From Botryllus schlosseri (lineage: Eukaryota): a stretch of 64,000 nucleotides of DNA. The notes under the pieces were generated by a model. The model made no database searches. It was not told the DNA's origin and was given only the letters and a program-made list of their open reading frames with translations. Each line of letters starts with the position of its first letter. Within the stretch, counting starts at the first letter, position 1. The stretch is taken from contig CM119371.1 in the NCBI GenBank assembly GCA_051294905.1, positions 31,808,001 to 31,872,000 on the forward strand. Reading direction: 5' to 3'. Below are positions 21,085 to 42,435 of this stretch, piece after piece. The translations under genes were made by a program, and so were the position numbers.

Positions 21085-22224
21085 TGAGAGCAACAGGAAC
21101 TTGGGCTACGGAGCCGGTTTATATTGCCGGATTCCACATCCACCCGCACTTCAATTCTAGTGAAATATATTGTGTTATCTACTACTGCTATTATAATCTA
21201 TTACACAGATTGAGTTACGGTTAAGCTTGATATTCGTGTTATGTTGCTGTCATAAATGCGTAACAGGTAGAACACCGTTTTAACTGCGTGGGGGAAAGCT
21301 GTCATGGATGCGTCGCCTCGATAAAACACCTGATTTACTGCGTGGATAAGCCCTCATTGTAGGAAGATCATCGCATATTGGTTTCATATTGCTTATATCG
21401 CTTAGTGATCTCTAGTTTATTATAACAGGCTTATTCTCCAACGTTGTTGGTATTGAATCACGATGCAGAACAGATCAAAGAGATTTAGCCTATTGTCTAG
21501 CTGGATCCTAGTTTTCTGAATTGTTTTGAACGTCACAGTGAAAGGGAAATTCTACAGTATATTTCTAACTCTAAATTTCATATGTCGACGAATTCAAGAC
21601 AGCGAAATACCTCCGCGCCATTCGCGACAAATTGTAGAGGCATTCTTGGGTCATTCTATTACACGCGGGGCAACTTTGAGAGTAAGTTTAGGAAGAGATT
21701 TTTCCATCCTAGTTAATAAATGATTTTGAATACAAATTGCTAATCATGTCAGCGAGATGCCTATATCAGTGTCAATTTTGGTCCTTGGCGTCAATGACAC
21801 GAATAGTGAGCATGACTGAACAGTTTATTGCGATATTTCCGGATACGGAAAACATAAAGAATAGGCTGAAAGTGCGATTTTCTCCCCACGTACGAATTTT
21901 ATTCATTCATCGCAATTTTGCGGAAAGAAAATATAGGAAGGCGAGAAGTTGTAAATTGATCACGACAAAATATCCAGCTGAGGTATTGCGTGACCAAAGG
22001 CATTTAGCATGTTACCTTCGAAATCATAGCTGAGAACATTGATTAATTAATTAATGACTTTCATTCAATCACTGCCATATAATAGCCTACATATATATAT
22101 ACAGCAGAGTTGGAGTAATTACATTAAATGAGTTCAATTAAAATTGCAAATACAAGTACACAAGCGAGTGGCGCAGTTGGAGCGCCAGCGTCACGACACT
22201 AATGACAGGGGTGCGAATTCCGGT

Positions 22225-22354
22225 CCTTTCCAATTCTCTACTGGTTGCTGACGATTACCCACGACGAGTGTCACCCGAAGATATTCAGGCTCATTTCAAT
22301 ATGTATATACTAATAAATCGTATATTGAAGTTCTGTACCTCCAAGAAGCTCTTC
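22225..22354 (+). mobile_element. Penelope 3'-end (pLTR) fragment with degenerate hammerhead
   Basis: Matches 34255-34350 and the GAAGCTCTTC terminus seen (reverse-complemented) at 33215. Confidence 0.75.
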
Positions 22355-24109
22355 AGCCCAAATACGAATTATAATTGATCCAACTCTGATATACAGTTGA
22401 CTCGGAGACTTTTAGTACGCTCACTTTTCGCCGAAGCAGCGGCGTTGTCCGGATTAAGCGTAAATCAATTGATCAATCAATGAAAATCCATGAATGGCAT
22501 CTGCTCTATACTGCACTAATTGGCACTGAGCGCATAAAATGCGCAAGAGTGAGTTATACCTTCAGATTGCTTGTATGCGGGACCGAAACTGCCGTACCCC
22601 TAATTTGGGGGGCGAACTCGAAAGGATACCAAAATTATATCGCGAATGAACATAAATTATAAAGTTTTTTATTATTTATGCTACTGTTTTAAAATTTTCT
22701 CGCCCGTTGCGCTACTTAATGTGGCAAACTATCTTGCTTATTGGGTACCCTTCCACCAATAAGAAAAGATATGCGTGATTTATAGAAATAGGCATTTCGT
22801 CGTCGGCAATTACCGCGCCACGACACATTAAGAGAAGACATATGAAGTCTAGGCCAACATGCAGTGGCGGCTCGTCCTATAGGGCAACTGGGGCATTGCC
22901 CCACCTAAAATTCTGTTCAGTAACAATTTAACCATTTATAGACGCACAGCGCTCAATATATACCGAGATCACAGCGAAACCCGCGTTCTTCTTGTGCTTT
23001 CGCTTGCAAATGCCCATACATAGAGAAGTCTCTGCGAAAATCGAATTCTCTTCTGTGTTTTCGCTTTGTGAATGCCTAGCCGGGGCTTGCCCCGGTAGCG
23101 CTCATAACAAGCTTTCACTATCTATTCTCTCAAAGCCGCGCACAATTAGGAAACGGTGATATACTCTCTCCTATTCGTAAAATTGCCGAGCAACCGGGGC
23201 ATATATGCCTGTCGCCCCTAAGGTGTGATGCAACAATCGTATCTATATTTGAACTCGGATACCGTGATATGCGTTGAGTTGACCTTTGCTGGTATAGGTC
23301 GATTTTGATGGTGTTTCACACCATGATAATTCTTGAAACTTGGTATGTCATGTCGTGATGGTGGTATTTAACACTGTCCTAAGTTTCAGGGTTTCTACTC
23401 AAAGTTTAGGGTAGTAATTCCGTTTCCAAAGTCGAGTGTGTGCTGATCCGTCATGTATCGCAAACATATTTCACGCAAAGCCGGTATTGGTCTCCATTAA
23501 TTTTAACGATGCTCCTTAGCTAGATCCGTCATGAGCTTTTACATGGTATGTCTTGATTTTAGTATCGAACGCTGTGCCAAGTCTCAAGGTTGGCACTCAA
23601 TGATTAGGGCAGCAATTTCGTTATCAAGTTCGAGTATGGTAGAGATGTGCGCTGATCTGACACTTAGCCTACCTAACGCATTGCGGATTTCACGCAAAAG
23701 CCGGTGTATCTGTGTTCCATACTGAGATAGGTGATGAGATGATGATATCATGAAACAGTTTACTAACATCCTCGGTTTGCATTCAAATATTTAGTTTTAT
23801 TTTATATTCTCCAATGTCAATTTCACCGTGGAATGGTGGCCTTCGGGCCATTTGCTCACAATTACAACCCCTGTCAAGCGCGATAGCTGTTTCGTTTTCG
23901 ATGGCGGCTAACAGCTTATCGCTTGATCAGCCTATTCCTCAGTAAATTTTACGCAAAATTCGGCGTTGATCAATTCGTATTAATTTTGACAGTGTACCAT
24001 ACCGAAAACGGTCATGAGGCTACTTCTCGATGATTTCATGTAAGTAGTATAGTAGATCAGTCGCGAATCGCCATTGTGGCTTATGGGCGGGGTGGCGAGC
24101 TAACGAGAA

Positions 24110-24290
24110 ACCGGGGGTGGCGAGCTAACGTTTTCTTCTTATGGCGGGGGTGGCGAGCTAACGTTTTCGTCTTATGGCGGGGGTGGCGAGCTAACGTTTT
24201 CGTCTTATGGCGGGGGTGGCGAGCTAACGTTTTCGTCTTATGGCGGGGGTGGCATGCTAACGTTTTCGTCTTATGGCGGGGGTGGTGATT
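24110..24290. repeat. Subterminal 33-bp tandem array, about 5 copies (GGCGGGGGTGGCGAGCTAACGTTTTCGTCTTAT); mirror at about 39905-40085
   Basis: Directly visible. Confidence 0.95.
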
Positions 24291-24343
24291 CGTACTTTCA
24301 GACCCCTCTCTCGGCCGTGATTCGTCATGGGTTCTTATGGACG

Positions 24344-24550
24344 CGTACTTTTGGGTATAGGCTGCGGTGGTGACTCGTATTGAAAACTCGTGGTCGTGAG
24401 TCGTACTTTTGGGTATAGGCTGCGGCGGTGACTCGTATTGAAAACTCGTAGTCGTGATTCGTACTTTCGGGTATAGGCTGCGGCGGTGAATCGTATTGAA
24501 ATACTCGTGTTGGTAAGTCGTAATTTCAGGTATAGACTGTGGTGGTGATT
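24344..24550. repeat. Subterminal 58-bp tandem array, about 3.5 copies; mirror at about 39645-39851
   Basis: CGTACTTT recurs at 24344, 24402 and 24460. Confidence 0.9.
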
Positions 24551-25004
24551 CGCCTGTCGTGTATTCTTACGGGATCTGTGGTGATTCGCCATGTGTTCTT
24601 ATGGGTGCGGTCGTGATTCGCACTTTCAGGCATCTCTCGCGTGGTGTTGAATAGTCACCAACAATAACCGCACAAACGGAAACGTGGCTTGCAAGAGGAT
24701 TAAGCAGTGCGTGCGACCTATATTTCGAATGACCTGCGCGCTGAATTGTTTCCCATGCAGCTGTGTGCTACTATCGATTATTACACTATTCCATTCAGTG
24801 TGAAATAGTTTGATCGTAAATTATTATACATGATGTCGTAGTTTAGTCGTGTCAAATGTCCGATCGTGTTCTCTTTCCTCGCTATTGATTGCTACCTGAA
24901 TAATACTTTCGGCTTATTCACACCGCTGTTTCGCACCTACAGAATAGTGTGCTGTTCACAGTCACAACAAGAATCACAAGTATACACATTTACACATTCG
25001 TTTA

Positions 25005-25436
25005 TTACTCTGAAATCAAACTCTTCACAAAAGCACGCACAATCGTATCATTCACTTTTTTATCATCGCGAAAATTATTCAAGTATTCCTCGGCTGAAAA
25101 TCCTTGTGCTCTTTTTATCAAGAATGCAATAGCATGATCTCCACACACATCTGAAGTTTTACTCTGTAACTGTTTCCCAGTCACGGAAAATTCATCCGGC
25201 TCCAGGAATTGGAATATCTGAGGCTTTAGTGGTCCGAAACCTAGTGAATCATGAAAATGAGTATCCTCATCTCTGTACACCCAGTGAGACCCAGGCAAAC
25301 TCGATTCGTCGTAATTAATGGTGATAGCGAATTTCCCGTCAGATGGTTTCTTTGGTAACTGGTCTACTAGATAAGTTCCTAGATATAGACTTTGTGTGTC
25401 AGGGTGGTTATAGAGAATATCATTGATCTCGCTTAT
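25005..25436 (-). CDS. Maverick/adenovirus-type (C5, adenain-like) cysteine protease, left-arm copy; ATG start not found
   Basis: LPGSHWV (His), HDSLG (Asp), QLQSKTSDVCG (Gln, Cys); the frame stays open upstream through YLGTY.VDQLP...INYD. Confidence 0.8.
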   Translation of the reverse strand: MSEINDILYNHPDTQSLYLGTYLVDQLPKKPSDGKFAITINYDESSLPGSHWVYRDEDTHFHDSLGFGPLKPQIFQFLEPDEFSVTGKQLQSKTSDVCGDHAIAFLIKRAQGFSAEEYLNNFRDDKKVNDTIVRAFVKSLISE

Positions 25437-28400
25437 TCAAAAAGGTGTGAAATAATTTTAAAATCCTGCGACCGCTCACAGGGTAATGCTCCAGACATAG
25501 CGATCGCTCATGATTTGGTGTTACAGACATACCGATCGCTCACAAGGTAATATTTCCGTAATTAGTTTGTCACAGAGTCGTCGCAGACGGTGATTCGTAA
25601 ACCAACAATTTGACACTTTCTGGTGGTCGCTATATGTTTTGACACTTCGGAACGTGGTCGACTTTAGTTGTATGATAACAATCATGCGAATATACAAGTA
25701 ATGTGTCAATTTGTCAACTTGAAATGAAACTCACTAAACAACTCAAGTTGATTCGTATCTTAATGTTTTAATTCGGTACAACTCTGATCCTTTTAGAAAT
25801 TCTTTTAATGCGATCTTTTGAATCGACCGTAACCTGAATATTACTGACGCCGACTTTCAGCCAGATCGAATTATTCGCACATTCCGCGTCGCTGTTTTCA
25901 CACCTATAGAATCAACACCAACTATAACTCTACAAGAATCAAGAATCACAAGTATGTGCATTATACAGTTATTGTCTTTATCAACTTGAAATCAAACTCT
26001 TAACAAAAACACGCAACTTATCATTTGTCAACTCTATCATGAAAATCCTTGAACCCGTATCATTAAGAGTGTTATAGTACGGCGTCGGAATCCACTCGCG
26101 AGATGTACTAAAGGTAAATCCAGATAATCCAAAATGAAATATTTGGACTTTGACATAGTCTGAATTGAAATAGATTGACAAACATAACTACCAACTTTCC
26201 ACGTACCATTTCGATATTATACGCACATTGATTTGAAACAAGTAATGAAACATTACAACTCTATTCACGATTCGGCTTTCCGTTTGTCAATGACAAATTT
26301 TAACATCTTACCATACTCAAAAGAATTATTCATAACATTAACCGGTGTTAAAAATATAGTTTTCACTTACTTGATTATATCACTACAACTCGCAAACTTG
26401 AATTAATTCGTCCTGGTTGTATTCATATGACCGATAATTTTTCTCCAACTGTAAAGGTCGGCCAGATCTACTACAGGTAAACTGAGATAATCCAGAATGA
26501 AATATGTGGACTTTGACATAGTCTGAATTGAAATAGATTGACAATCATGACTACCAACTTTGATCAAGTCACATTTCAAGATTATACTTTGCAACAATCC
26601 TTGAAACTGACAACTCTATTCACGACTCCGTTTCCGTTTGTAAAATAGAGTTTCAGAAATACTATCACTACGACAACTCAACATTTTAACATCTTACCAT
26701 GCACAAAAGAGTAATATACAAAAACCTTGGTAAGTCAATCCGTTTGTAGTAACTCACCAAACCAAAACAAAAAGTGTCCGTATGAAAAGTAGACAAGACT
26801 ACGCGAGTAATCACTACAACCCACAAACATACCAACTCAGTTGTATCCATATCCCATATATTTTATTCAACTGTAAGATGAAGTAATTACTACTCGGCGC
26901 GCGACTTGAGATTAACATGTGTTTTGAATATACGACATTTGAAAGTCTGACCAACGTAATTAAGAATTCATTTCTTACGATCAAACGCCGGTGTTACATT
27001 GAAAGTTATCATATTGTAAACATAAGGATTGACACAGTGATTTGACATATGACGTATATCTTGTACTACTCGACCATGACTTGATTATTAAATTATTCAC
27101 GGTAATTAGACTCGGTGTTTTGGTAAATGTTATTATGACAGCAACAAACTTTTCACTACCATGGTTATTAAAACATCAATTTGTAAAACTAGACTTACAT
27201 GTGCGAAATGTTCTTGATTGGGAAATTATTCCGGATTGGTACAAAACAATCGTTGTATTGCAGACAACAGAAAATACTTTAAAAATCCAATCGTTTATAG
27301 GACTAAAGATGAAACAACAATATCGGTATTATTACACTCAACAACCAGTACAATTATTAAAATCCGTCGTTTGCGATAACCGGCGCTAAAGATGTAATAA
27401 TTCCATTATTCATACATTGAACACCTGATACAAAATGCTTTATTATCACAATTCGTAACGAGTAATTGAAACGACTACGTGTGGAGTTAGTATATCACAA
27501 TATCGTTACTATTGAATCCAACAATTGATACGATTTATTGTCAGAATTTGTGACAGCGAATTGAAACATCCTTACCTTACGGAGTGTGAAAATATCGCCT
27601 TAGGTATCGAGTACCAGTAGAAGCGGATGAACAATACTTAATTCGTGACTCGTTGCTGTACTTGCTAAATGTAAAATATTACAAGGTTACACTCTAAGAT
27701 CTTGATCAGCACAAGAGCAATTTGGAATATCATTACTGGCTGCAACCTATTCTACTAGATAAAACTTACGGCAATAATAAAATCAAAATATGTGCTACAC
27801 TGAAATCTACAAAATGTGATTGTATTGTTGTTAGTGATCATACATTATCATATGAATATTCTAAAGTAATTATAATCATAAAAACCAAACCGCTGAAAGT
27901 CATTACCACCACAAAAACAATTTGTATGATATTCACCAAACGCATCCCGACTCAGTATACAGAAATTATTTGTAGAGTGCATACCGACAAAGAAATCACG
28001 AACACAACCAACACCGAAAATGATAAACACGTTTCGCGTTACTATTGATACAAGTTCATTTCTATCGGCGAAATAAATGCCACCACAAAACTCAGAGCAT
28101 GCAAAGGTCTTGATTGATATGCATTTCGATTTGTGTCTTATGATACCAGCAAGCATTTTAGACATATTACGAATTGTTAAACCAAAGTCGTACGTCCGAT
28201 TAATAGTTGATTGGAAACTTGTTCACGTACCTCAATCATTACAGAAAAGTATAACACCATTGTCCGACAATCTTTTACAAAAAGGATCGAAACCAAGTCA
28301 CTCAAAGTCGTTGCCGTCACATAAACAATTTGTACGACATTTGCTAAATGCGTCCTATAGTTAGGTGTACTAGAAATATTTGTAAAACACACTCCGATAA

Positions 28401-29849
28401 AGAAATCAACGAAAAGATATCCTACACCTAAACCTGGTAAAACCAGTTTGCACTTTCTGTTCATTAGTATGGTATCCATTTCCTTTCGTCAAACTAGATG
28501 TAATCATAGTCACTAAAGAACTTACTTGGACGTATGCTTGAATTCTAGACATAGTTCTGATTTGTCCGACACAAGACCCAAGAACAACCCTAGTTTCAAC
28601 CGAGCACACATATCCGAAATATCACACACTCCGCTATTCCTAAAGCGCAAACACCCGATACAAAATATTACTTGTTGTGTTGTTGCGGTATCATCTTCAC
28701 AATATCACACACAATACAAATGATGGGTATGTGTAACATGCTATCGACTTGAATCACACCAACATGGAAGAGGATTTACTCACTCTTTACATAACGATAT
28801 CGACCAACATCACGTCGGAGTGTATCGTTTTTTCTAGATACAAACTACGCTAGCGTAGCGGAAAATAATTTAGTGTAACAAAAACAATTTTCACTCTCTT
28901 GACTTATGAAAACAACAGACGAGTCTTCATTCAATATTTTGTTTGTGTCAACTAGTTACTTTGCATGATACGACTGATACCCCCGCGACTTTTTCAGATC
29001 ACAATATGAAAGATATTTACATCACACAAAATACTCAACTTGATATTCTCATACTATACTAAACTGCGGAATGGTTGGTCATGGTCAGACTCTACAAAAT
29101 GTTTTGATATCGTTTTTTACACGAATGGTCACGCATCTAAATATTCAAATAATCCAACACACAACTATAGTACTTACAGAAATATCATAGTTCTTGTAAC
29201 AAAGTTGTATGAATATACTATTCAATTGTATATTGAAGTTTTCTACCTCCAAGAAGATCTTCAAAGTTGTATGTGTACAATGTATATCGCGAGTCCTACA
29301 CATTCATGATATCCACCCGAGTTTGACTTTTAGTAAACACTATACCGACATCGCGACATCTTTAAAAATTAAAATCACGGTGACTGCTTGAGAGACCTAC
29401 CAATGATATCGCAGTAATACAGTTACTTCCACAAAAGAGTATGTATTCGACTTACTTTCCACAAATCTAACCCACAAAACAATTTACTTTGCTAACAAAA
29501 AGTGCTGAGTCATCAAGTGATTGTCCTAGCAACAAAACAGCTAAACATTTTAGTAACACTATATCCACATCATCGAGTTGTGCGAGTAGATTTACATGCG
29601 GTCTTGTGGTTTTAATCGAAGTACACAACACGGTCTAATGTAGAGCCATCTCTATTGTACAGCAACTCGGTAATCGAAATGCATTAAAATTTAAACAACG
29701 ATCTTGTTTCATCACGCGAAAAATATCTTTACTGTCGCGACACTCTGATACTCTGCACAAGATGTGTAAATCCTTTTCACACTCGTAATAGTATCCCAAT
29801 GGCTACCGGCGACAACGTTTAACAACACCAACGACACTAAACATACGAT

Positions 29850-30375
29850 ACCTACCCAAGTAAAATTTCCATTTTCCCCTGGAGGTCAGCCGTTACCTGA
29901 GTAAAAATACCATCATTCTTTGGAGATTTATCGTTTAATCAGAGTAACAAAACATTTTCACTTGGGGGTCTATCGTTTCCAAGAGTAACAAGCCCCCTTT
30001 CCTTTGGAAATATATTTTTTCCCTGGGTAACAAACCTTTTTCACTTGTAAATATATTTTTCCCTCGGGTAACAAACCTTTTTCGCTTGGAAATATATTTT
30101 TCCTTGAGCAACAAACCATTTTCACTTTGAAATATATTTTTTCCCTGAGCAACAAACCATTTTCACTTGGAAATATATTTTTCCCTGAGCAACAAACCAT
30201 TTCACTTGGCGGGTCGTCGTTTACCTGAGTAAAATATCATTTTCCTTTGGAGATCCGGCGTTTACCCATTGTAACAATACATTTTCACTTGGAAATCTGT
30301 CGTTTACCTGAGTACCGATACCGTTTTCACTTGGAAATCTATCTTTTCCCCGGGTAACAGTACCATTTTCGTTTT
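29850..30375. repeat. Degenerate 40-41 bp tandem array (TTTTCACTTGGAAATATATTTTTCCCTGAGCAACAAACCA), about a dozen units; mirror at about 32680-33200
   Basis: Directly visible; explains the repetitive FPSE ORFs. Confidence 0.9.
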
Positions 30376-33278
30376 GAAAACTGACCACCACACCGGCCAA
30401 TTTGATATTTTTGTATATTGTTACAACAGACAGTGACAAAATATACACCAACAACGACTCCGATGCATTTGTGTAATCGCATACTCACTTGTTCTGGTGC
30501 ATCCCATCAAAATCGACGGTTAGCCACACACACACACACACACACACACACAATAACAATGCGCTATTTCGATATGACTGCGATGTCCGGGTCCGTGCTT
30601 TAGATTTTCCAGAAGCAATCCGTCTAAAGTTGTAATCCCCCGACTTTGTTAACTGGTTGATACACGGATAACAATCTTCGGAAAATGTGGGAATGCATGC
30701 TACCCATCGTGCTAACGATTCCAGGTTACTTGTAAATAATTTTCTTGCTCACCCTATACAGATTATACGTACAGGGATATGTAGCGGTAATAGGTTTGGT
30801 CAATACATATCGCCCCATTCAGTATGGAATTACAAACCCAATACAGGTCAGTTCATAACCGGATCCGGATATTCAATGCAAAGCGATAAAGCAGAACCAA
30901 TGACCAAATGTAATTAAACATGTAGATTCACAACCCTTGATTTTTTTTCGTGAAAAATAACAATACATATCGAATATATTTTACGATTGTTCAACCCTAC
31001 CAAGTATTCACGTAAATGTGGTTTATGACATTACATACAATGTGTCGGTGTACAAATGTTGGGTGTTTATGCACACATCGGTACGACCTATACACAACAT
31101 CATCATACCCTCCAGAACTTCGTTATTGCATCGCGAGGTCAATAAAATCAATTTTGTATATTCAATCGGTGGCATAGACGACGGAAGGCTTGGAGATCCA
31201 ATGTAAAATTCAGACAAACAAACGGATATATTTGTCCATCTTGGTATTCACTCAACTACCATTGGTGCTCTCGATACAGCGAACGGTACAGTATGCAACG
31301 CATATCATTAGAGTGATATATCCACAGGTAAATATGGGGCCTGGTCACAATAATTGTATCGAGATTTAACCCAGATTACTATCCGTTCACTGATTCACTC
31401 GATGGTTTTAGCAACTTGTAACAACACAAGATAGACACGACTGGAATTACTAATATTCATAATGTTTATGATAAGTGTCGTTACCGATCGTGCACTAAGT
31501 CGACATAAATATTCGAAAAATCGGATATCACTACTCTCAACACCGGTGATTCGGTTTAAGTTTGAAATCGATTTGGTAATGTAATCCAAGGTATGTTTCT
31601 GTGGGATCTGCTAACCTTTACGAGAGAGTGCTGTCTCTTTGACATATGAAACAATTATTATCAACCACACCTTGTGTGCATCGATTTGTCGGCGTCGTAC
31701 AATTATTGTGGCCAGGCCCCATATTTACCTGTGGATATATCACTCTAATGATATGCGTTGCATACTGTACCGTTCGCTGTATCGAGAGCACCAATGGTAG
31801 TTGAGTGAATACCAAGATGGACAAATATATCCGTTTGTTTGTCTGAATTTTACATTGGATCTCCAAGCCTTCCGTCGTCTATGCCACCGATTGAATATAC
31901 AAAATTGATTTTATTGACCTCGCGATGCAATAACGAAGTTCTGGAGGGTATGATGATGTTGTGTATAGGTCGTACCGATGTGTGCATAAACACCCAACAT
32001 TTGTACACCGACACATTGTATGTAATGTCATAAACCACATTTACGTGAATACTTGGTAGGGTTGAACAATCGTAAAATATATTCGATATGTATTGTCATT
32101 TTTCACGAAAAAAAAATCAAGGGTTGTGAATCTACATGTTTAATTACATTTGGTCATTGGTTCTGCTTTATCGCTTTGCATTGAATATCCGGATCCGGTT
32201 ATGAACTGACCTGTATTGGGTTTGTAATTCCATACTGAATGGGGCGATATGTATTGACCAAACCTATTACCGCTACATATCCCTGTACGTATAATCTGTA
32301 TAGGGTGAGCAAGAAAATTATTTACAAGTAACCTGGAATCGTTAGCACGATGGGTAGCATGCATTCCCACATTTTCCGAAGATTGTTATCCGTGAATCAA
32401 CCAGTTAACAAAGTCGGGGGATTACAACTTTAGACGGATTGATTCTGGAAAATCTAAAGCACGGACCCGGACATCGCAGTCATATCGAAATAGCGCATTG
32501 TTATTGTGTGTGTGTGTGTGTGTGTGTGGCTAACCGTCGATTTTGATGGGATGCACCAGAACAAGTGAGTATGCGATTACACAAATGCATCGGAGTCGTT
32601 GTTGGTGTATATTTTGTCACTGTCTGTTGTAACAATATACAAAAATATCAAATTGGCCGGTGTGGTGGTCAGTTTTCAAAACGAAAATGGTACTGTTACC
32701 CGGGGAAAAGATAGATTTCCAAGTGAAAACGGTATTGGTACTCAGGTAAACGACAGATTTCCAAGTGAAAATGTATTGTTACAATGGGTAAACGCCGGAT
32801 CTCCAAAGGAAAATGATATTTTACTCAGGTAAACGACGACCCGCCAAGTGAAATGGTTTGTTGCTCAGGGAAAAATATATTTCCAAGTGAAAATGGTTTG
32901 TTGCTCAGGGAAAAAATATATTTCAAAGTGAAAATGGTTTGTTGCTCAAGGAAAAATATATTTCCAAGCGAAAAAGGTTTGTTACCCGAGGGAAAAATAT
33001 ATTTACAAGTGAAAAAGGTTTGTTACCCAGGGAAAAAATATATTTCCAAAGGAAAGGGGGCTTGTTACTCTTGGAAACGATAGACCCCCAAGTGAAAATG
33101 TTTTGTTACTCTGATTAAACGATAAATCTCCAAAGAATAATGGTATTTTTACTCAGGTAACGGCTGACCTCCAGGGGAAAATGGAAATTTTACTTGGGTA
33201 GGTATCGTATGTTTGAAGAGCTTCTTGGAAGTACAGAACTTCAATATACAATTAAATAGTATATTCATATTGAAATGA

Positions 33279-33312
33279 ACCCGAATATTTTCGGCTGACA
33301 CTCGTCAGGGGT
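33279..33312 (-). ncRNA. Minimal type I hammerhead ribozyme in the Penelope pLTR (mirror copy)
   Basis: Exact reverse complement of 34285-34318. Confidence 0.7.
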
Positions 33313-33784
33313 AATCGTCAGCAACTAGTAGAGAATTGGAAAGAACATTGTATATCAACAATCGTATCACAAAATATGACGTCACCAGCATGAAATTTCG
33401 AATGAGAGAACGTTCAATGTACTATTTTTAGGTGATACACGAACTCCTTTTGTTGACAGAGTTTTGGTTGGTGTATTTTGATAAAAGTTGATTCCAAGGC
33501 ACACAAATGGAATTGTGAACGACCTCGACCTACGATTCGAAATCGGTCGTCTCGATAATTATTCGCACAAATCGGATTATCCAACAGATGTTTGCCGATG
33601 GCAGAATTAATGGCCTTTGATCGATCAGCATCAATCTTAAGTGGATGAGTTAAGGGTGAGCTTTTCACATCGCGTGACGCACGTGTTCTGATAAATCTGG
33701 GGACATGTTGGTTTATGCGGTCCTGCAGACGTCTTGACGTTCTTCCCACGTAGCCACAATCACAGTGGCACCTATATTCGTACA

Positions 33785-34183
33785 CTACCTGCACTTCAAC
33801 AAAGTAATGTAGTGTACGAATATAGGTGCCACTGTGATTGTGGCTACGTGGGAAGAACGTCAAGACGTCTGCAGGACCGCATAAACCAACATGTCCCCAG
33901 ATTTATCAGAACACGTGCGTCACGCGATGTGAAAAGCTCACCCTTAACTCATCCACTTAAGATTGATGCTGATCGATCAAAGGCCATTAATTCTGCCATC
34001 GGCAAACATCTGTTGGATAATCCGATTTGTGCGAATAATTATCGAGACGACCGATTTCGAATCGTAGGTCGAGGTCGTTCACAATTCCATTTGTGTGCCT
34101 TGGAATCAACTTTTATCAAAATACACCAACCAAAACTCTGTCAACAAAAGGAGTTCGTGTATCACCTAAAAATAGTACATTGA
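33785..34183 (+). pseudogene. C-terminal GIY-YIG endonuclease fragment of the Penelope ORF (inverted copy at 33414-33788, minus strand)
   Basis: SNVVYEYRCHCDCGYVGRTSRRLQDRINQH...SAIGKHL...LESTFIKIHQPKLC; no RT domain present. Confidence 0.9.
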
Positions 34184-34284
34184 ACGTTCTCTCATTCGAA
34201 ATTTCATGCTGGTGACGTCATATTTTGTGATACGATTGTTGATATACAATGTTCTTTCCAATTCTCTACTAGTTGCTGACGATT

Positions 34285-34318
34285 ACCCCTGACGAGTGTC
34301 AGCCGAAAATATTCGGGT
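34285..34318 (+). ncRNA. Minimal type I hammerhead ribozyme in the Penelope pLTR
   Basis: ACCC-CUGACGA-gugucagcc-GAAA-AUAU-UC-GGGU: stem I ACCC/GGGU, palindromic stem III AAUAUU, UUC cleavage triplet. Confidence 0.72.
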
Positions 34319-37300
34319 TCATTTCAATATGAATATACTATTTAATTGTATATCGTATGTTTAGTGTCGTTGGTGTTGTTAAACGTTGTCGCCGGTAGCC
34401 ATTGGGATACTATTACGAGTGTGAAAAGGATTTACACATCTTGTGCTGAGTATCAGAGTGTCGCGACAGTAAAGATATTTTTCGCGTGATGAAACAAGAT
34501 CGTTGTTTAAATTTTAATGCATTTCGATTACCGAGTTGCTGTACAATAGAGATGGCTCTACATTAGACCGTGTTGTGTACTTCGATTAAAACCACAAGAC
34601 CGCATGTAAATCTACTCGCACAACTCGATGATGTGGATATAGTGTTACTAAAATGTTTAGCTGTTTTGTTGCTAGGACAATCACTTGATGACTCAGCACT
34701 TTTTGTTAGCAAAGTAAATTGTTTTGTGGGTTAGATTTGTGGAAAGTAAGTCGAATACATACTCTTTTGTGGAAGTAACTGTATTACTGCGATATCATTG
34801 GTAGGTCTCTCAAGCAGTCACCGTGATTTTAATTTTTAAAGATGTCGCGATGTCGGTATAGTGTTTACTAAAAGTCAAACTCGGGTGGATATCATGAATG
34901 TGTAGGACTCGCGATATACATTGTACACATACAACTTTGAAGATCTTCTTGGAGGTAGAAAACTTCAATATACAATTGAATAGTATATTCATACAACTTT
35001 GTTACAAGAACTATGATATTTCTGTAAGTACTATAGTTGTGTGTTGGATTATTTGAATATTTAGATGCGTGACCATTCGGGTAAAAAACGATATCAAAAC
35101 ATTTTGTAGAGTCTGACCAACCATTCCGCAGTTTAGTATAGTATGAGAATATCAAGTGGAGTATTTTGTGTGATGTAAATATCTTTCATATTGTGATCTG
35201 AAAAAGTCGCGGGGGTATCAGTCGTATCATGCAAAGTAACTAGTTGACACAAACAAAATATTGAATGAAGACTCGTCTGTTGTTTTCATAAGTCAAGAGA
35301 GTGAAAATTGTTTTTGTTACACTAAATTATTTTCCGCTACGCTAGCGTAGTTTGTATCTAGAAAAAACGATACACTCCGACGTGATGTTGGTCGATATCG
35401 TTATGTAAAGAGTGAGTAAATCCTCTTCCATGTTGGTGTGATTCAAGTCGATAGCATGTTACACATACCCATCATTTGTATTGTGTGTGATATTGTGAAG
35501 ATGATACCGCAACAACACAACAAGTAATATTTTGTATCGGGTGTTTGCGCTTTAGGAATAGCGGAGTGTGTGATATTTCGGATATGTGTGCTCGGTTGAA
35601 ACTAGGGTTGTTCTTGGGTCTTGTGTCGGACAAATCAGAACTATGTCTAGAATTCAAGCATACGTCCAAGTAAGTTCTTTAGTGACTATGATTACATCTA
35701 GTTTGACGAAAGGAAATGGATACCATACTAATGAACAAAAAGTGCAAACTGGTTTTACCAGGTTTAGGTGTAGGATATCTTTTCGTTGATTTCTTTATCG
35801 GAGTGTGTTTTACAAATATTTCTAGTACACCTAACTATAGGACGCATTTAGCAAATGTCGTACAAATTGTTCATGTGACGGCAACGACTTTGAGTGACTT
35901 GGTTTCGATCCTTTTTGTAAAAGATTGTCGGACAATGGTGTTATACTTTTCTGTAATGATTGAGGTACGTGAACAAGTTTCCAATCAACTATTAATCGGA
36001 CGTACGACTTTGGTTTAACAATTCGTAATATGTCTAAAATGCTTGCTGGTATCATAAGACACAAATCGAAATGCATATCAATCAAGACCTTTGCATGCTC
36101 TGAGTTTTGTGGTGGCATTTATTTCGCCGATAGAAATGAACTTGTATCAATAGTAACGCGAAACGTGTTTATCATTTTCGGTGTTGGTTGTGTTCGTGAT
36201 TTCTTTGTCGGTATGCACTCTACAAATAATTTCTGTATACTGAGTCGGGATGCGTTTGGTGAATATCATACAAATTGTTTTTGTGGTGGTAATGACTTTC
36301 AGCGGTTTGGTTTTTATGATTATAATTACTTTAGAATATTCATATGATAATGTATGATCACTAACAACAATACAATCACATTTTGTAGATTTCAGTGTAG
36401 CACATATTTTGATTTTATTATTGCCGTAAGTTTTATCTAGTAGAATAGGTTGCAGCCAGTAATGATATTCCAAATTACTCTTGTGCTGATCAAGATCTTA
36501 GAGTGTAACCTTGTAATTTTTTACATTTAGCAAGTACAGCAACGAGTCACGAATTAAGTATTGTTCATCCGCTTCTACTGGTACTCGATACCTAAAGCGA
36601 TATTTTCACACTCCGTAAGGTAAGGATGTTTCAATTCGCTGTCACAAATTCTGACAATAAATCGTATCAATTGTTGGATTCAATAGTAACGATATTGTGA
36701 TATACTAACTCCACACGTAGTCGTTTCAATTACTCGTTACGAATTGTGATAATAAAGCATTTTGTATCAGGTGTTCAATGTATGAATAATGGAATTATTA
36801 CATCTTTAGCGCCGGTTATCGCAAACGATGGATTTTAATAATTGTACTGGTTGTTGAGTGTAATAATACCGATATTGTTGTTTCATCTTTAGTCCTATAA
36901 ACGATTGGATTTTTAAAGTATTTTCTGTTGTCTGCAATACAACGATTGTTTTGTACCAATCCGGAATAATTTCCCAATCAAGAACATTTCGCACATGTAA
37001 GTCTAGTTTTACAAATTGATGTTTTAATAACCATGGTAGTGAAAAGTTTGTTGCTGTCATAATAACATTTACCAAAACACCGAGTCTAATTACCGTGAAT
37101 AATTTAATAATCAAGTCATGGTCGAGTAGTACAAGATATACGTCATATGTCAAATCACTGTGTCAATCCTTATGTTAACAATATGATAACTTTCAATGTA
37201 ACACCGGCGTTTGATCGTAAGAAATGAATTCTTAATTACGTTGGTCAGACTTTCAAATGTCGTATATTCAAAACACATGTTAATCTCAAGTCGCGCGCCG

Positions 37301-38758
37301 AGTAGTAATTACTTCATCTTACAGTTGAATAAAAAATATGGGATATGGATACAACTGAGTTGGTATGTTTGTGGGTTGTAGTGATTACTCGCGTAGTCTT
37401 GTCCACTTTTCATACGGACACTTTTTGTTTTGGTTTGGTGAGTTACTACAAACGGATTGACTTACCAAGGTTTTTGTATTTTACTCTTTTGTGCATGGTA
37501 AGATGTTAAAATGTTGAGTTGTCGTAGTGATAGTATTTCTGAAACTCTATTTCACAAACGGAAACGGAGTCGTGAATAGAGTTGTCAGTTTCAAGGATTG
37601 TTGCAAAGTATAATCTTGAAATGTGACTTGATCAAAGTTGGTAGTCATGATTGTCAATCTATTTCAATTCAGACTATGTCAAAGTCCACATATTTCATTC
37701 TGGATTATCTCAGTTTACCTGTAGTAGATCTGGCCGACCTTTACAGTTGGAGAAAAATTATCGGTCATATGAATACAACCAGGACGAATTAATTCAAGTT
37801 TGCGAGTTGTAGTGATATAATCAAGTAAGTGAAAACTATATTTTTAACACCGGTTAATGTTATGAATAATTCTTTTGAGTATGGTAAGATGTTAAAATGT
37901 GTCATTGACAAACGGAAAGCCGAATCGTGAATAGAGTTGTAATGTTTCATTACTTGTTTCAAATCAATGTGCGTATAATATCGAAATGGTACGTGGAAAG
38001 TTGGTAGTTATGTTTGTCAATCTATTTCAATTCAGACTATGTCAAAGTCCAAATATTTCATTTTGGATTATCTGGATTTACCTTTAGTACATCTCGCGAG
38101 TGGATTCCGACGCCGTACTATAACACTCTTAATGATACGGGTTCAAGGATTTTCATGATAGAGTTGACAAATGATAAGTTGCGTGTTTTTGTTAAGAGTT
38201 TGATTTCAAGTTGATAAAGACAATAACTGTATAATGCACATACTTGTGATTCTTGATTCTTGTAGAGTTATAGTTGGTGTTGATTCTATAGGTGTGAAAA
38301 CAGCGACGCGGAATGTGCGAATAATTCGATCTGGCTGAAAGTCGGCGTCAGTAATATTCAGGTTACGGTCGATTCAAAAGATCGCATTAAAAGAATTTCT
38401 AAAAGGATCAGAGTTGTACCGAATTAAAACATTAAGATACGAATCAACTTGAGTTGTTTAGTGAGTTTCATTTCAAGTTGACAAATTGACACATTACTTG
38501 TATATTCGCATGATTCTTATCATAAAACTAAAGTCGACCACGTTCCGAAGTGTCAAAACATATAGCGACCACCAGAAAGTGTCAAATTGTTGGTTTACGA
38601 ATCACCGTCTGCGACGACTCTGTGACAAACTAATTACGGAAATATTACCTTGTGAGCGATCGGTATGTCTGTAACACCAAATCATGAGCGATCGCTATGT
38701 CTGGAGCATTACCCTGTGAGCGGTCGTAGGATTTTAAAATTATTTCACACCTTTTTGA

Positions 38759-39190
38759 ATAAGCGAGATCAATGATATTCTCTATAACCACCCTGACACA
38801 CAAAGTCTATATCTAGGAACTTATCCAGTAGACCAGTTACCAAAGAAACCAACTGACGGGAAATTCGCTATCACCATTAATTACGACGAATCGAGTTTGC
38901 CTGGGTCTCACTGGGTGTACAGAGATGAGGATACTCATTTTCATGATTCACTAGGTTTCGGACCACTAAAGCCTCAGATATTCCAATTCCTGGAGCCGGA
39001 TGAATTTTCCGTGACTGGGAAACAGTTACAGAGTAAAACTTCAGATGTGTGTGGAGATCATGCTATTGCATTCTTGATAAAAAGAGCACAAGGATTTTCA
39101 GCCGAGGAATACTTGAATAATTTTCGCGATGATAAAAAAGTGAATGATACGATTGTGCGTGCTTTTGTGAAGAGTTTGATTTCAGAGTAA
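38759..39190 (+). CDS. Maverick/adenovirus-type cysteine protease, right-arm copy; ATG start not found
   Basis: Open from 38759 after a TGA: ISEINDILYNHPDTQSLYLGTYPVDQLP...GSHWV...HDSLG...QLQSKTSDVCG. Confidence 0.8.
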   Translation: MSEINDILYNHPDTQSLYLGTYPVDQLPKKPTDGKFAITINYDESSLPGSHWVYRDEDTHFHDSLGFGPLKPQIFQFLEPDEFSVTGKQLQSKTSDVCGDHAIAFLIKRAQGFSAEEYLNNFRDDKKVNDTIVRAFVKSLISE

Positions 39191-40521
39191 TAAACGAATG
39201 TGTAAATGTGCATACTTGTGATTCTTGTTGTGACTGTGAACAGCAGACTATTCTGTAGGTGCGAAACAGCGGTGTGAATAAGCCGAAAGTATTATTCAGG
39301 TAGCAATCAATAGCGAGGAAAGAGAACACGACCGGACATTTGACACGACTAAACTACGACATCATGTATAATAATTTACGATCAAACTATTTCACACTGA
39401 ATGGAATAGTGTAATAATCGATAGTAGCACACAGCTGCATGGGAAACAATTCAGCGCGCAGGTCATTCGAAATATAGGTCGCACGCACTGCTTAATCCTC
39501 TTGCAAGCCACGTTTCCGTTTGTGCGGTTATTGTTGGTGACTATTCAACACCACGCGAGAGATGCCTGAAAGTGCGAATCACGACCGCACCCATAAGAAC
39601 ACATGGCGAATCACCACAGATCCCGTAAGAATACACGACAGGCGAATCACCACCACAGTCTATATCTGAAATTACGACTTACCAACACGAGTATTTCAAT
39701 ACGATTCACCGCCGCAGCCTATACCCGAAAGTACGAATCACGACTACGAGTTTTCAATACGAGTCACCGCCGCAGCCTATACCCAAAAGTACGACTCACG
39801 ACCACGAGTTTTCAATACGAGTCACCGCCGCAGCCTATACCCAAAAGTACGCGTCCATAAGAACCCATTACGAATCACGGCCGAGAGAGGGGTCTGAAAG
39901 TACGAATCACCACCCCCGCCATAAGACGAAAACGTTAGCATGCCACCCCCGCCATAAGACGAAAACGTTAGCTCGCCACCCCCGCCATAAGACGAAAACG
40001 TTAGCTCGCCACCCCCGCCATAAGACGAAAACGTTAGCTCGCCACCCCCGCCATAAGACGAAAACGTTAGCTCGCCACCCCCGGTTTCTCGTTAGCTCGC
40101 CACCCCGCCCATAAGCCACAATGGCGATTCGCGACCGATCTACTATACTACTCATGTAACAGTGTACCAAGTTTTCGGCTTTCATCCACGTATTTATTCG
40201 CTAATATATTTTCCGAAGGCGATTTTGCAGCAGACATATAGACAGTAGACACTATAGACCGTAAGCCGTATGTGTCGTGTGACAATCTCCAGCCTCAAGG
40301 TCAAAATCTCCCAAGCTGTTCCGGGACCGAATTTCCGAGGCTGCTATCCGTAGTTCTTCAGAATGATGTTTTGGATTCAATATGACATTTCCTTGTCCAA
40401 TCTATGAGAGAACAATTGCGTATGTGTCCGAACTCGTTGACCTTTCCAGTAAGGCATACGCAATCTCTCGATTTATAGTCATTTCCATTTCTGCAGATAA
40501 GTAGTCAGGTCAAGTGCGAAC

Positions 40522-40865
40522 ATGAATCGTGTTGAATCTTTGCTCCGTACGCCGTTTAGCCAGCTGCCTTTAGAGCAAAAATTAGAGGTAAAGCGACTAG
40601 GTCCGTATCAGCCTAGAAATTGCCCATTGGTCCAATCGTACGCCGGAGGAAAACGCACTCGTGCCTTTTCTTCAGCGCATTTCGATAAAAATGAATGGCT
40701 TACTTATAGCGAGGATAAAAACGCCTTGTTTTGCTTTTACTGTCTTTTATTCGACAGTGCCGGTACCGGAAGCAGTGGCTCTTGTTGGAACAAAATTGGT
40801 TATCGCGATCTGAAGCATTTGTCAGAGCGTGTGAAAGCGCACCAAAAATCCAAAAATCATTGTTT
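40522..40865 (+). pseudogene. N-terminal TTF-type zinc-finger fragment of a ZMYM1-like hAT transposase
   Basis: RLGPYQP...RAFSS.HFDKNEWLTYSEDKNALFCFYCLLF...W.KIGYRDLKHLSERVKAHQKSKNH; catalytic region deleted; right TIR about 100 bp downstream. Confidence 0.85.
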
Positions 40866-42435
40866 ACGGGAAATTCATGTGACCATCATGAACGTTGAAA
40901 AACGCTACTGTGGCGTCATATTGATAACAAGTCGCTTGCGGCCCTTGCCCCACCACCCGATATTGTCACGAGCCGCCACTGCCAACATGGAATTCCAAGA
41001 AATGTGCCAAAAAGATCGGCAGCAAGAAAACTTTGCCCGGAAAGGACTGCCTTATGCTGACCGAAAACTAGTCGGGCGCCTAAATGGCTGACGCCAAATC
41101 TTCCTGTTCTGACAATCTGAACCCTACAGAACAAATGTCATCCCGCAGAGAAAAATCGTTTGTCGGTGAAGAAATACGAATTTGGAATCGTTAGGGTATT
41201 TTAGTTTAGAGTTTAGTACGGTTGAGCAATTTTAATATCGTTCGCCTATAGCAGACAGGAGGTCACGAAAAAACAACATGTAACGAAGTATTTATATGAG
41301 CAGCCCACCCGAGTATGGTTAATTAAATACGTGTCCTAACTTTTCCAAGACAACACCTCACTCAGCTCTACCGGTAAATTTGATTACTTGGGCTGAGAGA
41401 GGCTGAAAAATTAAATCCCAATTAATATGCAATAACATATATTAATGACGTATTCAATCACGGATTAGGGAAAATTTTGCGCTTAGCGTGATTAGACTAG
41501 ATAAAGTCACTAACAGAGTAAAATCAATTACAAATAAATACAAATTACAAATAATGGTGAAAAATCAATAAAATGGGGGGTCTGGGGAAGGAAGCCACCC
41601 GTTTGGAATATCATCTTATGGAAGGTCCAATACCAACATTTTCGGGTCTGACGAAGTGCTTTTTCGGCCCTGCTTGTAAGGTACAGTATGTTGACACCAT
41701 TTTATTCAACAAATACTGTATAGGCTCCTGTATTACTGTGTAACACACACACATATAGTGTTAACCGCGCAGTACTAAGCCATGCAGCAAGGGTTGAAAC
41801 GGTATTTTCGCTAATTCTGCTCAATTTACGGGTATATACCGCTTTTACAATCTCGGGGGCTGGAAGGAGAACATGAAATCTCACATCAGTATGTTGAAAA
41901 GAGTGTCTGCTTATCACGAAACATTGAGACATTGAATACTCTTGTGAATTTGTGCTGCACCTGAATCATAAAAACAGCTCTTGATTGATTCGTTTATCGG
42001 TAGAGACTATGATGCTTTATATACAGAATGATTATAGTTGTTGCTCAGCTAGTTTAATAACAATCTACTTTTGTTGGTCGAATTACGATTCTCTTTGATA
42101 TGACCCGGCAGAATATCAAAATGATGTTCAGTCAGTGGACACTGATTAATATTTTTCTGACCTTGATGCAAGTCAAAAGCCAGGAAGGACATTTCATATA
42201 CCGTCTGCATTGTCAACCATTTGGTAAGATATATGATATTAATTGCAGAATCAGCATACAAAAGTCTAGTATAGCGGAAATTTATGGCTCGTAATCAAAA
42301 TAATAAATGTAATAACTTTTATCCCGCATTCAGAAATCGAGTAATATTTAGATCGACTTACCAACTTTGACGATATCATTGACGAGGAGCTGAAATTTGA
42401 AAATTGGCCAATTGTTCCCAGTTATCACCCGATAA

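Follow-up and report, generated by a model that had tools for sequence, protein, structure and literature searches.

What is the segment that occupies positions 24043-40152 of a 64-kb stretch of the Botryllus schlosseri genome, and does it represent a single accident of replication or a lineage of elements? The stretch, referred to as the window throughout, corresponds to C1:31808001-31872000 of an assembly comprising 495 Mb in 219 contigs. A preliminary description had read the segment as a defective Maverick/Polinton, one end of which had been duplicated into a giant hairpin by snap-back replication. Our analysis indicates that, with regard to both anatomy and family status, the segment is very probably an integrated copy of a multi-copy, non-autonomous family of Maverick-derived elements that are palindromic over their whole length. 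The core idea of the preliminary description was a good one but its scale was different: the element is a member of an established and abundant family, not a lone defective genome.

The whole palindromic element measures 16,110 bp. AGTAGTATAGTAG begins at 24043 and CTACTATACTACT closes at 40152, giving AGTAGT.../...ACTACT termini, and the element is bordered by a 6-bp target-site duplication, CATGTA, at 24037-24042 and 40153-40158. Both AG...CT-type terminal inverted repeats and the 6-bp duplication are thus present, as in Maverick/Polinton elements; a typical Polinton, according to the accessible part of one study, has a 6-bp duplication and a 584-bp terminal repeat (PMC3014272). The left arm (24043-31358, plus strand, 7,316 bp) and the right arm (31698-40152, minus strand, 8,455 bp including an insert) are separated by a unique central loop of 339 bp (31359-31697). 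The inverted repeat runs unbroken from the termini to 31358/31698 in blocks that are 98-100% complementary, and the left arm matches the reverse-complemented right arm at 99.2-99.4% identity. An alignment of the arms over 7,316 bp revealed 34 substitutions (0.46%), evenly distributed and leaving no long identical tracts, and three small indels of 6, 4, and 1 bp. An inverted repeat of such length and identity cannot have arisen by chance. The termini, the duplication, the arm boundaries, and the loop were all verified at the positions given in the preliminary description.

Spurious long palindromes are a known fault of long-read libraries, and the structure might accordingly be an assembly artefact produced by a fold-back chimeric read or a misjoined repeat. 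However, the element has unique flanks and a perfect 6-bp duplication, its arms differ at 34 positions, and one arm carries a 1.1-kb insert with a 12-bp duplication of its own. In addition, at least 20 other loci display the same architecture, and the loop with its arm boundaries occurs in contigs of other sequencing runs. We therefore consider an artefact extremely improbable. With regard to these outside data, the loop was found at 90-100% identity in contigs from four public runs, which belong to four studies. An 85-nt contig bridges the left loop junction (31309-31393), and a 399-nt contig (31329-31727) consists of the loop and 30 nt of each arm, which is the product expected from a 31-mer graph for a unique loop between inverted repeats. 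Eight positions of the loop have a letter other than that of the window in nearly all contigs from all four runs, which would be expected of a multi-copy family with the window copy as one of its variants. The outside contigs support the junction, not the full span.

To characterize the family, we searched the genome for the terminal 300 bp of the element. Among the best 40 of 1,318 candidates, 78 matches were listed, many of them occurring as plus/minus pairs at a distance of 12-16 kb. Ten elements sharing the terminus were fetched as two halves each, and the halves were compared without being joined. Nine of these ten relatives are giant palindromes, with an arm identity of 98.1-99.9% over the main aligned blocks. 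The 6-bp duplications of the nine palindromic siblings are perfect in seven and match at five of six positions in one, and all are different; for the ninth sibling no terminus was found. Across the family copies the arms span 6-7 kb and the loops 0.2-1 kb, and at two further pairs of termini the loop sits at the exact midpoint. A single genomic copy would have weakened the notion that the family is mobile; several copies occur at different loci, each with a duplication of its own.

The loop and its junctions occur repeatedly in the genome. When the 250 bp beside the window loop were used as a query, 26 of the 40 scored matches formed 13 plus/minus pairs at 336-339 bp, the window pair included, while the partners of the other 14 may be among 200 further candidates. 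The 339-bp loop itself was found in 40 full-length copies at 96-100% identity (best 40 of 422 candidates), and the 983-bp loop of another subfamily in about 40 copies at 92-100%. Loops are homologous even between subfamilies with an arm difference of as much as about 25%. Between the window loop and the loop of the copy designated C12a, identity is 97%; a 59-bp patch is common to the 339-bp loop and the 940-953-bp loops of three other copies, at equal distance from the arm boundary; loops of 878-983 bp in further subfamilies are 74-94% alike; and one loop of 210 bp is a deletion derivative. No conserved reading frame was found when loops were compared between subfamilies. Because the same junction and loop occur at 13 loci or more and the loops are homologous across diverged subfamilies, we concluded from the sequence comparison that the palindromic architecture is old and inherited and represents the normal form of the family. 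A single snap-back accident does not agree with the same junction at 12 or more other loci, at least 40 copies of the loop, and palindromic structure in nine of ten relatives. The same data bear on the possibility that two separate Maverick-derived insertions landed head to head. Mavericks do cluster in this genome: on C7, two palindromic elements are separated by 1.5 kb, and a stretch of 0.3 Mb on C3 contains several. However, the window element has a single duplication and a single pair of termini, its arms do not end in termini on the inner side, and two chance neighbours are refuted by the same 339-bp loop joining the arms at no fewer than 12 other loci. This explanation is hardly credible.

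The preliminary description had called for autonomous partners in the same genome, and these exist. The tenth fetched element, the only one among them that is not palindromic, is an autonomous copy (C1:30838413-30854242) and has a length of 15,830 bp, a terminal repeat of 887 bp, and the duplication CACGGG. It encodes the domains DNA_pol_B_2 (PF03175, E 1.5e-7), rve (2.3e-16), and Chromo (4.4e-9). A frame of 432 aa resembles double-jelly-roll capsid clusters (Atlas 0.98; the family is annotated on 14-30% of the cluster members), which provides a lead toward a capsid-like protein. Eight frames of the autonomous copy yielded no match in PHROGs, and its putative ATPase and other frames yielded only weak, sub-threshold matches in Pfam. 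At least 54 loci related to its polymerase occur in the genome at 70-100% amino acid identity, most of them with open frames of 1,200-1,300 aa, indicating that helpers are plentiful. A second lineage of protein-primed polymerase (pPolB), at 70-76% amino acid identity and with open frames of about 1,130-1,306 aa, represents a second Maverick family; its loci are C11:4968498, C13:17135682, C8:28213854, C1:27341168, and C1:27769941.

The match between the palindromic element and the autonomous copy is confined to arm positions 1-1388. Arm positions 1-243 are 88.5% identical to both ends of the autonomous copy, the first 16 nt of the terminus being identical, and positions 512-1388 are 91.9% identical to its right end, through the protease gene. 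In the left arm, the part matching the right end of the autonomous Maverick, comprising terminal repeat and protease gene, lies at 24043-25430 (plus strand). Subterminal tandem repeats occupy 24112-24552 in the left arm (33 bp x5.3 at 24112-24285 and 58 bp x3.6 at 24344-24552) and 39643-40083 in the right arm (58-bp and 33-bp units). The 33-bp repeats recur in the terminal repeat of the autonomous copy, as repeated matches of arm positions 70-243, and are probable binding sites for replication or integration proteins of the helper. Nothing in the fetched autonomous copy corresponds to the inner 5.9 kb of each arm, a family-specific sequence that shows no coding signal. The earlier claim that one end of the element was duplicated thus does not hold for the arm as a whole, since only positions 1-1388 are autonomous sequence, at 88-92% identity.

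These matches also bear on the idea that the element is an unrelated foldback-type DNA transposon resembling a Maverick only at its tips. Foldback (FB) elements of Drosophila have very long inverted arms of tandem repeats, which are often non-coding and capable of forming hairpins. The window element likewise has long inverted arms rich in 33-, 58-, and 41-bp tandem repeats, the 41-bp arrays lying at 29853-30370 in the left and 32683-33157 in the right arm, and it has no transposase. However, the outer 1.39 kb, including the protease fragment, are 88-92% identical to the end of an element encoding pPolB and integrase, the first 16 nt are identical to the autonomous terminus, and both elements give 6-bp duplications. 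The target duplication of FB elements is 9 bp, their ends are unrelated to Mavericks, and their arms consist mainly of short repeats, whereas 6-bp duplications are found with Maverick ends in the window, in eight of nine palindromic siblings, and in the autonomous copy. A foldback origin is therefore very unlikely. Foldback elements are mentioned in passing in a review of giant transposons (PMC6431247), the accessible text of which contains no case of a whole-element palindrome.

The element carries little coding sequence. Stop-to-stop frames within the arm are short, and the longest in a 3.1-kb non-coding module of the arm (26466-29546, with a mirror copy in the right arm at 34655-37729) has 124 aa. 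None of 18 arm frames gave a Pfam match above thresholds, and neither Rfam at gathering thresholds nor a tRNA scan gave a match within 23500-40700. To detect remnants of Maverick genes, tblastn was performed with every frame of at least 90 aa of the autonomous copy (E ≤ 1e-3); no remnant of pPolB, integrase, ATPase, or capsid was found in the window element or in the nine palindromic siblings. The absence of these genes, already noted in the preliminary description, was thus borne out by Pfam and tblastn. Since the element lacks genes for replication, integration, and capsid, it must have moved in trans, as had been suggested. Mobilization by helper proteins would also be in line with the shared ends and the equal length of the duplications.

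The one recognizable gene product is a protease of the adenain-like type (clan CE), present once per arm. The left frame (25005-25436, minus strand) and the right frame (38759-39190, plus strand) each comprise 143 codons without an ATG and differ at two amino acids. The fragment is 93% identical at the amino acid level to a frame of the autonomous copy (L028:6249-6812). Full-length relatives have 147-149 aa, and the residues H, D, Q, and C are invariant across the alignment. A profile of this alignment matches the S273R cysteine protease of ASFV (E 8e-5), and the closest relative in Atlas lies among Preplasmiviricota Peptidase_C5 clusters (score 0.97, TM up to 0.92). The AlphaFold2 model was poor (mean pLDDT 55.5), and the assignment is based on the profile match and Atlas; a single-sequence search of solved structures returned the protease only at E 1.5 and nothing for a left-end frame of 215 aa found in the copy C12a. 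The adenain-like identity of one frame per arm, as first described, is therefore supported by both profile and Atlas. An intact gene is not: the window frames lack an ATG, are broken shortly before the point at which, in the alignment, their relatives start, and lack two residues after the catalytic His motif, and on this basis we classify them as gene fragments. Among the palindromic copies, tblastn detected the protease in the window, C8, and C3b, and the 215-aa frame in C12a, indicating that the sub-terminal sequence carried by palindromic subfamilies corresponds to the right end of the autonomous element in some and to its left end in others.

How do the two arms of a copy remain alike? 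The 3.1-kb module was taken from the left and the right arm of six copies; the maximum-likelihood tree built from these sequences placed arms of the same copy as sisters in all six cases (100/100). Same-copy arm pairs share private branches of 0.011-0.067, compared to arm tips of 0.0007-0.004, and these long shared branches indicate that a copy has its private changes in the left and the right arm alike. Correspondingly, a 316-bp segment is missing in both arms of the window element and present in both arms of C12a; it also occurs in the left arms of C7a and C3a. The site of this indel, at arm position 5504/5505 (window 29546/29547 and its mirror), is a clean junction and shows microhomology of 2-3 nt. 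Arm divergence and the difference in arm length were determined for the nine copies whose termini are known. Divergence was 0.10% with a length difference of 1 bp in C15, 0.16% with 0 bp in C8, 0.41% with 691 bp in C3a, 0.46% with 1,139 bp in the window, 0.52% with 1,175 bp in C7a, 0.58% with 1,190 bp in C12b, 0.66% with 1,232 bp in C3b, 0.78% with 1,338 bp in C7b, and 1.2% with 2,069 bp in C12a. The ranks of divergence and asymmetry agree perfectly (n=9), though several of the length differences are nearly equal; a safer split sets the two copies below 0.2%, which are exactly symmetrical, against the seven above 0.4%, none of which is (exact probability about 0.03). When one-sided inserts were compared between copies, most proved unrelated to one another and to the Penelope-like insert of the window. 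As divergence and asymmetry rise together, the arms seem to have been identical and symmetrical at integration and to have decayed afterwards. This in turn would imply that the arms are rebuilt from one template during extrachromosomal replication.

Sister arms with long private branches in six of six copies, and a 316-bp indel that is alike in both arms of a copy, would equally fit gene conversion between the arms of each chromosomal copy without any involvement of replication, as known from sex-chromosome palindromes and the plastid inverted repeat. Conversion in place is less easily reconciled with one-sided insertions of 0.7-2 kb that persist in seven of nine copies, or with the even spread of the 34 differences in the window, which leaves no long identical tracts. 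Moreover, divergence tracks asymmetry and the two most similar arm pairs are symmetrical, which fits decay from an identical start better. We therefore regard conversion as the sole cause of arm likeness as unlikely. For the rebuilding of both arms from one arm during each replication cycle, the case appears to us evenly balanced.

Such rebuilding could proceed as follows. The protein-primed polymerase of the helper would initiate at the terminal origins, and the displaced self-complementary strand would fold into a hairpin, or the palindrome would split into hairpin-capped halves. The end of the hairpin stem would restore the origin; a nascent 3' end could also take its own strand as template. 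The full palindrome would then be rebuilt in the following round of synthesis from effectively one arm, so that each new copy would begin with identical and symmetrical arms, comparable to the LTRs of an LTR element. The integrase of the helper would insert the palindrome and create the 6-bp duplication, and in the chromosome the arms would decay separately by substitutions and one-sided insertions, such as the Penelope-like insert in the window. Adenovirus mini-chromosomes with one origin are able to regain the second by fold-back repair. The family was probably founded when a one-ended product of replication underwent snap-back (copy-back). In this context, the accessible part of an in vitro study on phi29 polymerase, a related enzyme that likewise displaces strands, reports that more than 85% of 475 chimeras were inverted (PMC1855051).

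Stepwise inward growth of terminal inverted repeats by panhandle end-copying, without any single snap-back, could have led to the same structure. Terminal repeats of Mavericks vary, being 887 bp in the autonomous copy, and so-called butterfly polintons are reported, in the part of the source accessible to us, to have repeats of about 2 kb holding hexon and adenain (10.1101/2025.02.07.637071). The same inner module also occurs next to the right-end protease (window and C8) or next to the left-end 215-aa frame (C12a), indicating that ends are exchanged with autonomous elements. However, none of the ten fetched elements is an intermediate, the repeat comprising either 887 bp or the whole arm, and the inner arms are unrelated to the autonomous element and thus do not represent its genes drawn into a growing repeat. 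We consider repeat growth rather unlikely; it shares fold-back pairing with the snap-back origin that we favour, and both give the same present-day biology. Across four full-length siblings, all eight arms have the 3.1-kb module at 94-96% identity, compared to only 75-87% for the sequence beside it. Together with the alternative subterminal parts, this mosaic points to exchange of segments between elements that may replicate together.

Total length minus the arm-length difference amounts to about 12.2-15.0 kb in the nine copies, the two pristine copies measuring 13,602 and 13,607 bp compared to 15,830 bp for the autonomous copy. The passengers thus have about 80-95% of the length of the helper, which suggests a packaging constraint set by capsid size. 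The preliminary description had noted a size near that of ordinary Mavericks, and the comparison with the autonomous copy bears this out (about 12-15 kb versus 15.8 kb). Undersized helper-dependent adenovirus genomes are packaged as multimers. In a broader and more tentative reading, which we put forward as possible while leaning slightly against it, the palindromes record the replication of Mavericks: every cycle would pass through a one-arm hairpin intermediate, the arms would serve as a clock, and the family would constitute a heritable satellite of a virus-like transposon, a defective snap-back genome turned into a lasting germline lineage whose size is constrained by the capsid.

Several points weigh against this reading of the element, its arms, and its size. 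The genome searches score the best 40 candidates only, and all copy counts are lower bounds. The inner 5.9 kb of each arm are absent from the autonomous copy, and a derivation from a Maverick is accordingly demonstrated for the outer 1.4 kb only. The link between divergence and asymmetry is drawn from nine copies split two versus seven, and arm-to-arm conversion in the chromosome could also make the arms sisters, whereas their rebuilding is what we infer. The size argument sets nine palindromic copies against a single autonomous copy, and a specific autonomous helper copy, interference, and packaging enter the model as proposed roles only. Concerning the outside data, the contigs of the public runs are short and assembled, and none spans both arms; the right loop junction is covered by 30 arm-side letters, one short of the rule for bridging; several bins are without cover in three of the runs; and the run that covers the element best may derive from the sample of the assembly itself. 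The gaps in contig cover do not speak against the structure.

With the autonomous Maverick, the window element shares the termini, the 33-bp repeats, the 6-bp duplication, and the protease beside the right terminal repeat. It differs from it in being a palindrome without pPolB, integrase, ATPase, and capsid, in which the inverted repeat spans everything but a loop of 0.2-1 kb and about 80% of the arm is non-coding sequence that the autonomous copy lacks. Adenovirus incomplete particles are counted among snap-back defective genomes. Snap-back or copy-back defective genomes, which also occur in RNA viruses, are likewise symmetric palindromes over their whole length, with two identical origin ends and dependence on a helper; symmetric palindromes are described in the accessible text of PMC13506859, and snapback genomes are known for AAV according to that of PMC8235507. 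However, such genomes arise anew in each infection, whereas in the present family 13 or more loci share a conserved junction and loop and the copies are integrated in the germline; and while the hairpin geometry fits, helper sequence accounts for just 1.39 kb of the 7.3-kb arm. Butterfly polintons, as far as the source can be consulted (10.1101/2025.02.07.637071), have terminal repeats of about 2 kb extending over adenain, with two copies per element, but keep a unique gene core and are autonomous; in the window family the repeat takes up 12-14 kb of 13-16 kb and there is no core. LTR retrotransposons also start with two repeats that are identical at integration and diverge later, and here arm divergence tracks structural decay in a similar manner; they differ in that the present family consists of DNA elements with inverted, not direct, repeats and has a different enzymology. 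Protist virophages bear terminal palindromes of 52 nt, as stated in the accessible part of the literature. No whole-element palindromic Maverick is described in the literature that was covered in part; subscription journals and Repbase reports lay mostly outside this coverage, and an earlier description may therefore exist.

The replication and packaging of Maverick/Polinton elements have so far been inferred mostly from gene content. Passengers that keep only the ends of such an element, are palindromic, have arms that would be alike at birth, and reach about 80-95% of the helper length provide testable evidence on both, concerning end-initiated replication with fold-back intermediates as well as a packaging-size limit. 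A non-coding passenger of 13-15 kb is unusual, as non-autonomous DNA transposons are usually short deletion derivatives. Arm divergence could be used to date insertions. If the model is correct and the palindromes are transcribed through, the product would be a hairpin RNA of 6-7 kb covering the helper ends and the protease, which could trigger RNA silencing of the helper. Palindromes of this type also threaten the correctness of assemblies and the stability of the genome, and with a copy number of at least tens, perhaps hundreds, and about 14 kb per copy, they account for a visible part of a 495-Mb genome.

Several further observations were made on the family. Among 11 target duplications, five begin with CACG (CACGTT twice, CACGTG, and CACGGG) or CATG (CATGTA), and most have a central CG, which hints at a preference for such targets. 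Palindromic elements occur in clusters: two lie 1.5 kb apart on C7 (C7:17655052-17685880), and at least four pairs of termini are located within 0.27 Mb at C3:33143453-33411399. In a copy at C8:19530501-19542900 (L033:3278-8000 and L036:1-1229), the arms reach only to arm position 4218, and the centre is formed by an imperfect palindrome of 584 bp that is absent from all other loci fetched. Possibly this copy arose by a snap-back of its own, in which foreign sequence was incorporated; as its right arm is truncated and no duplication is readable, it was not used as evidence for such an event.

The extra segment found only in the right arm of the window element (33215-34350, 1,136 bp) consists of head-to-head 3' fragments of a Penelope-like retroelement. 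It is bordered by the 12-bp duplication TATCGTATGTTT (33203-33214 and 34351-34362) and is built of two head-to-head arms of 545 nt each. Each half contains a frame of 162 aa that matches GIY-YIG only weakly (Pfam E 0.027, which does not reach the cut-off). At 96% identity, this frame corresponds to the C-terminus of a frame located elsewhere in the genome, which has 860 aa, as do the longest frames of the family, and bears RVT_1 (E 7.8e-9). Penelope-like elements have this order of domains, with GIY-YIG after the reverse transcriptase, and the identity of the insert given in the preliminary description is thus supported by the RVT_1 relative and the GIY-YIG-type C-terminus; the insert comprises the 3' part only, present twice. 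The Penelope-like family is very abundant, with about 150 matches at 94-100% amino acid identity (best 150 of 9,351 candidates). Many of its copies occur in minus/plus pairs 0.3-4 kb apart, indicating that head-to-head pairs are common.

Three observations concern the surroundings of the palindrome. An 11-nt word, ACAGTGTACCA, occurs in both flanks (23990-24042 and 40153-40180) at chance level (E 0.43). To the right of the element, an open frame of 196 aa (40501-41091, plus strand) gave no match in Pfam. To its left, 133 nt at 22223-22355 are 90% complementary to the edge of the insert (33214-33346) and represent a further Penelope-like fragment located outside the element.

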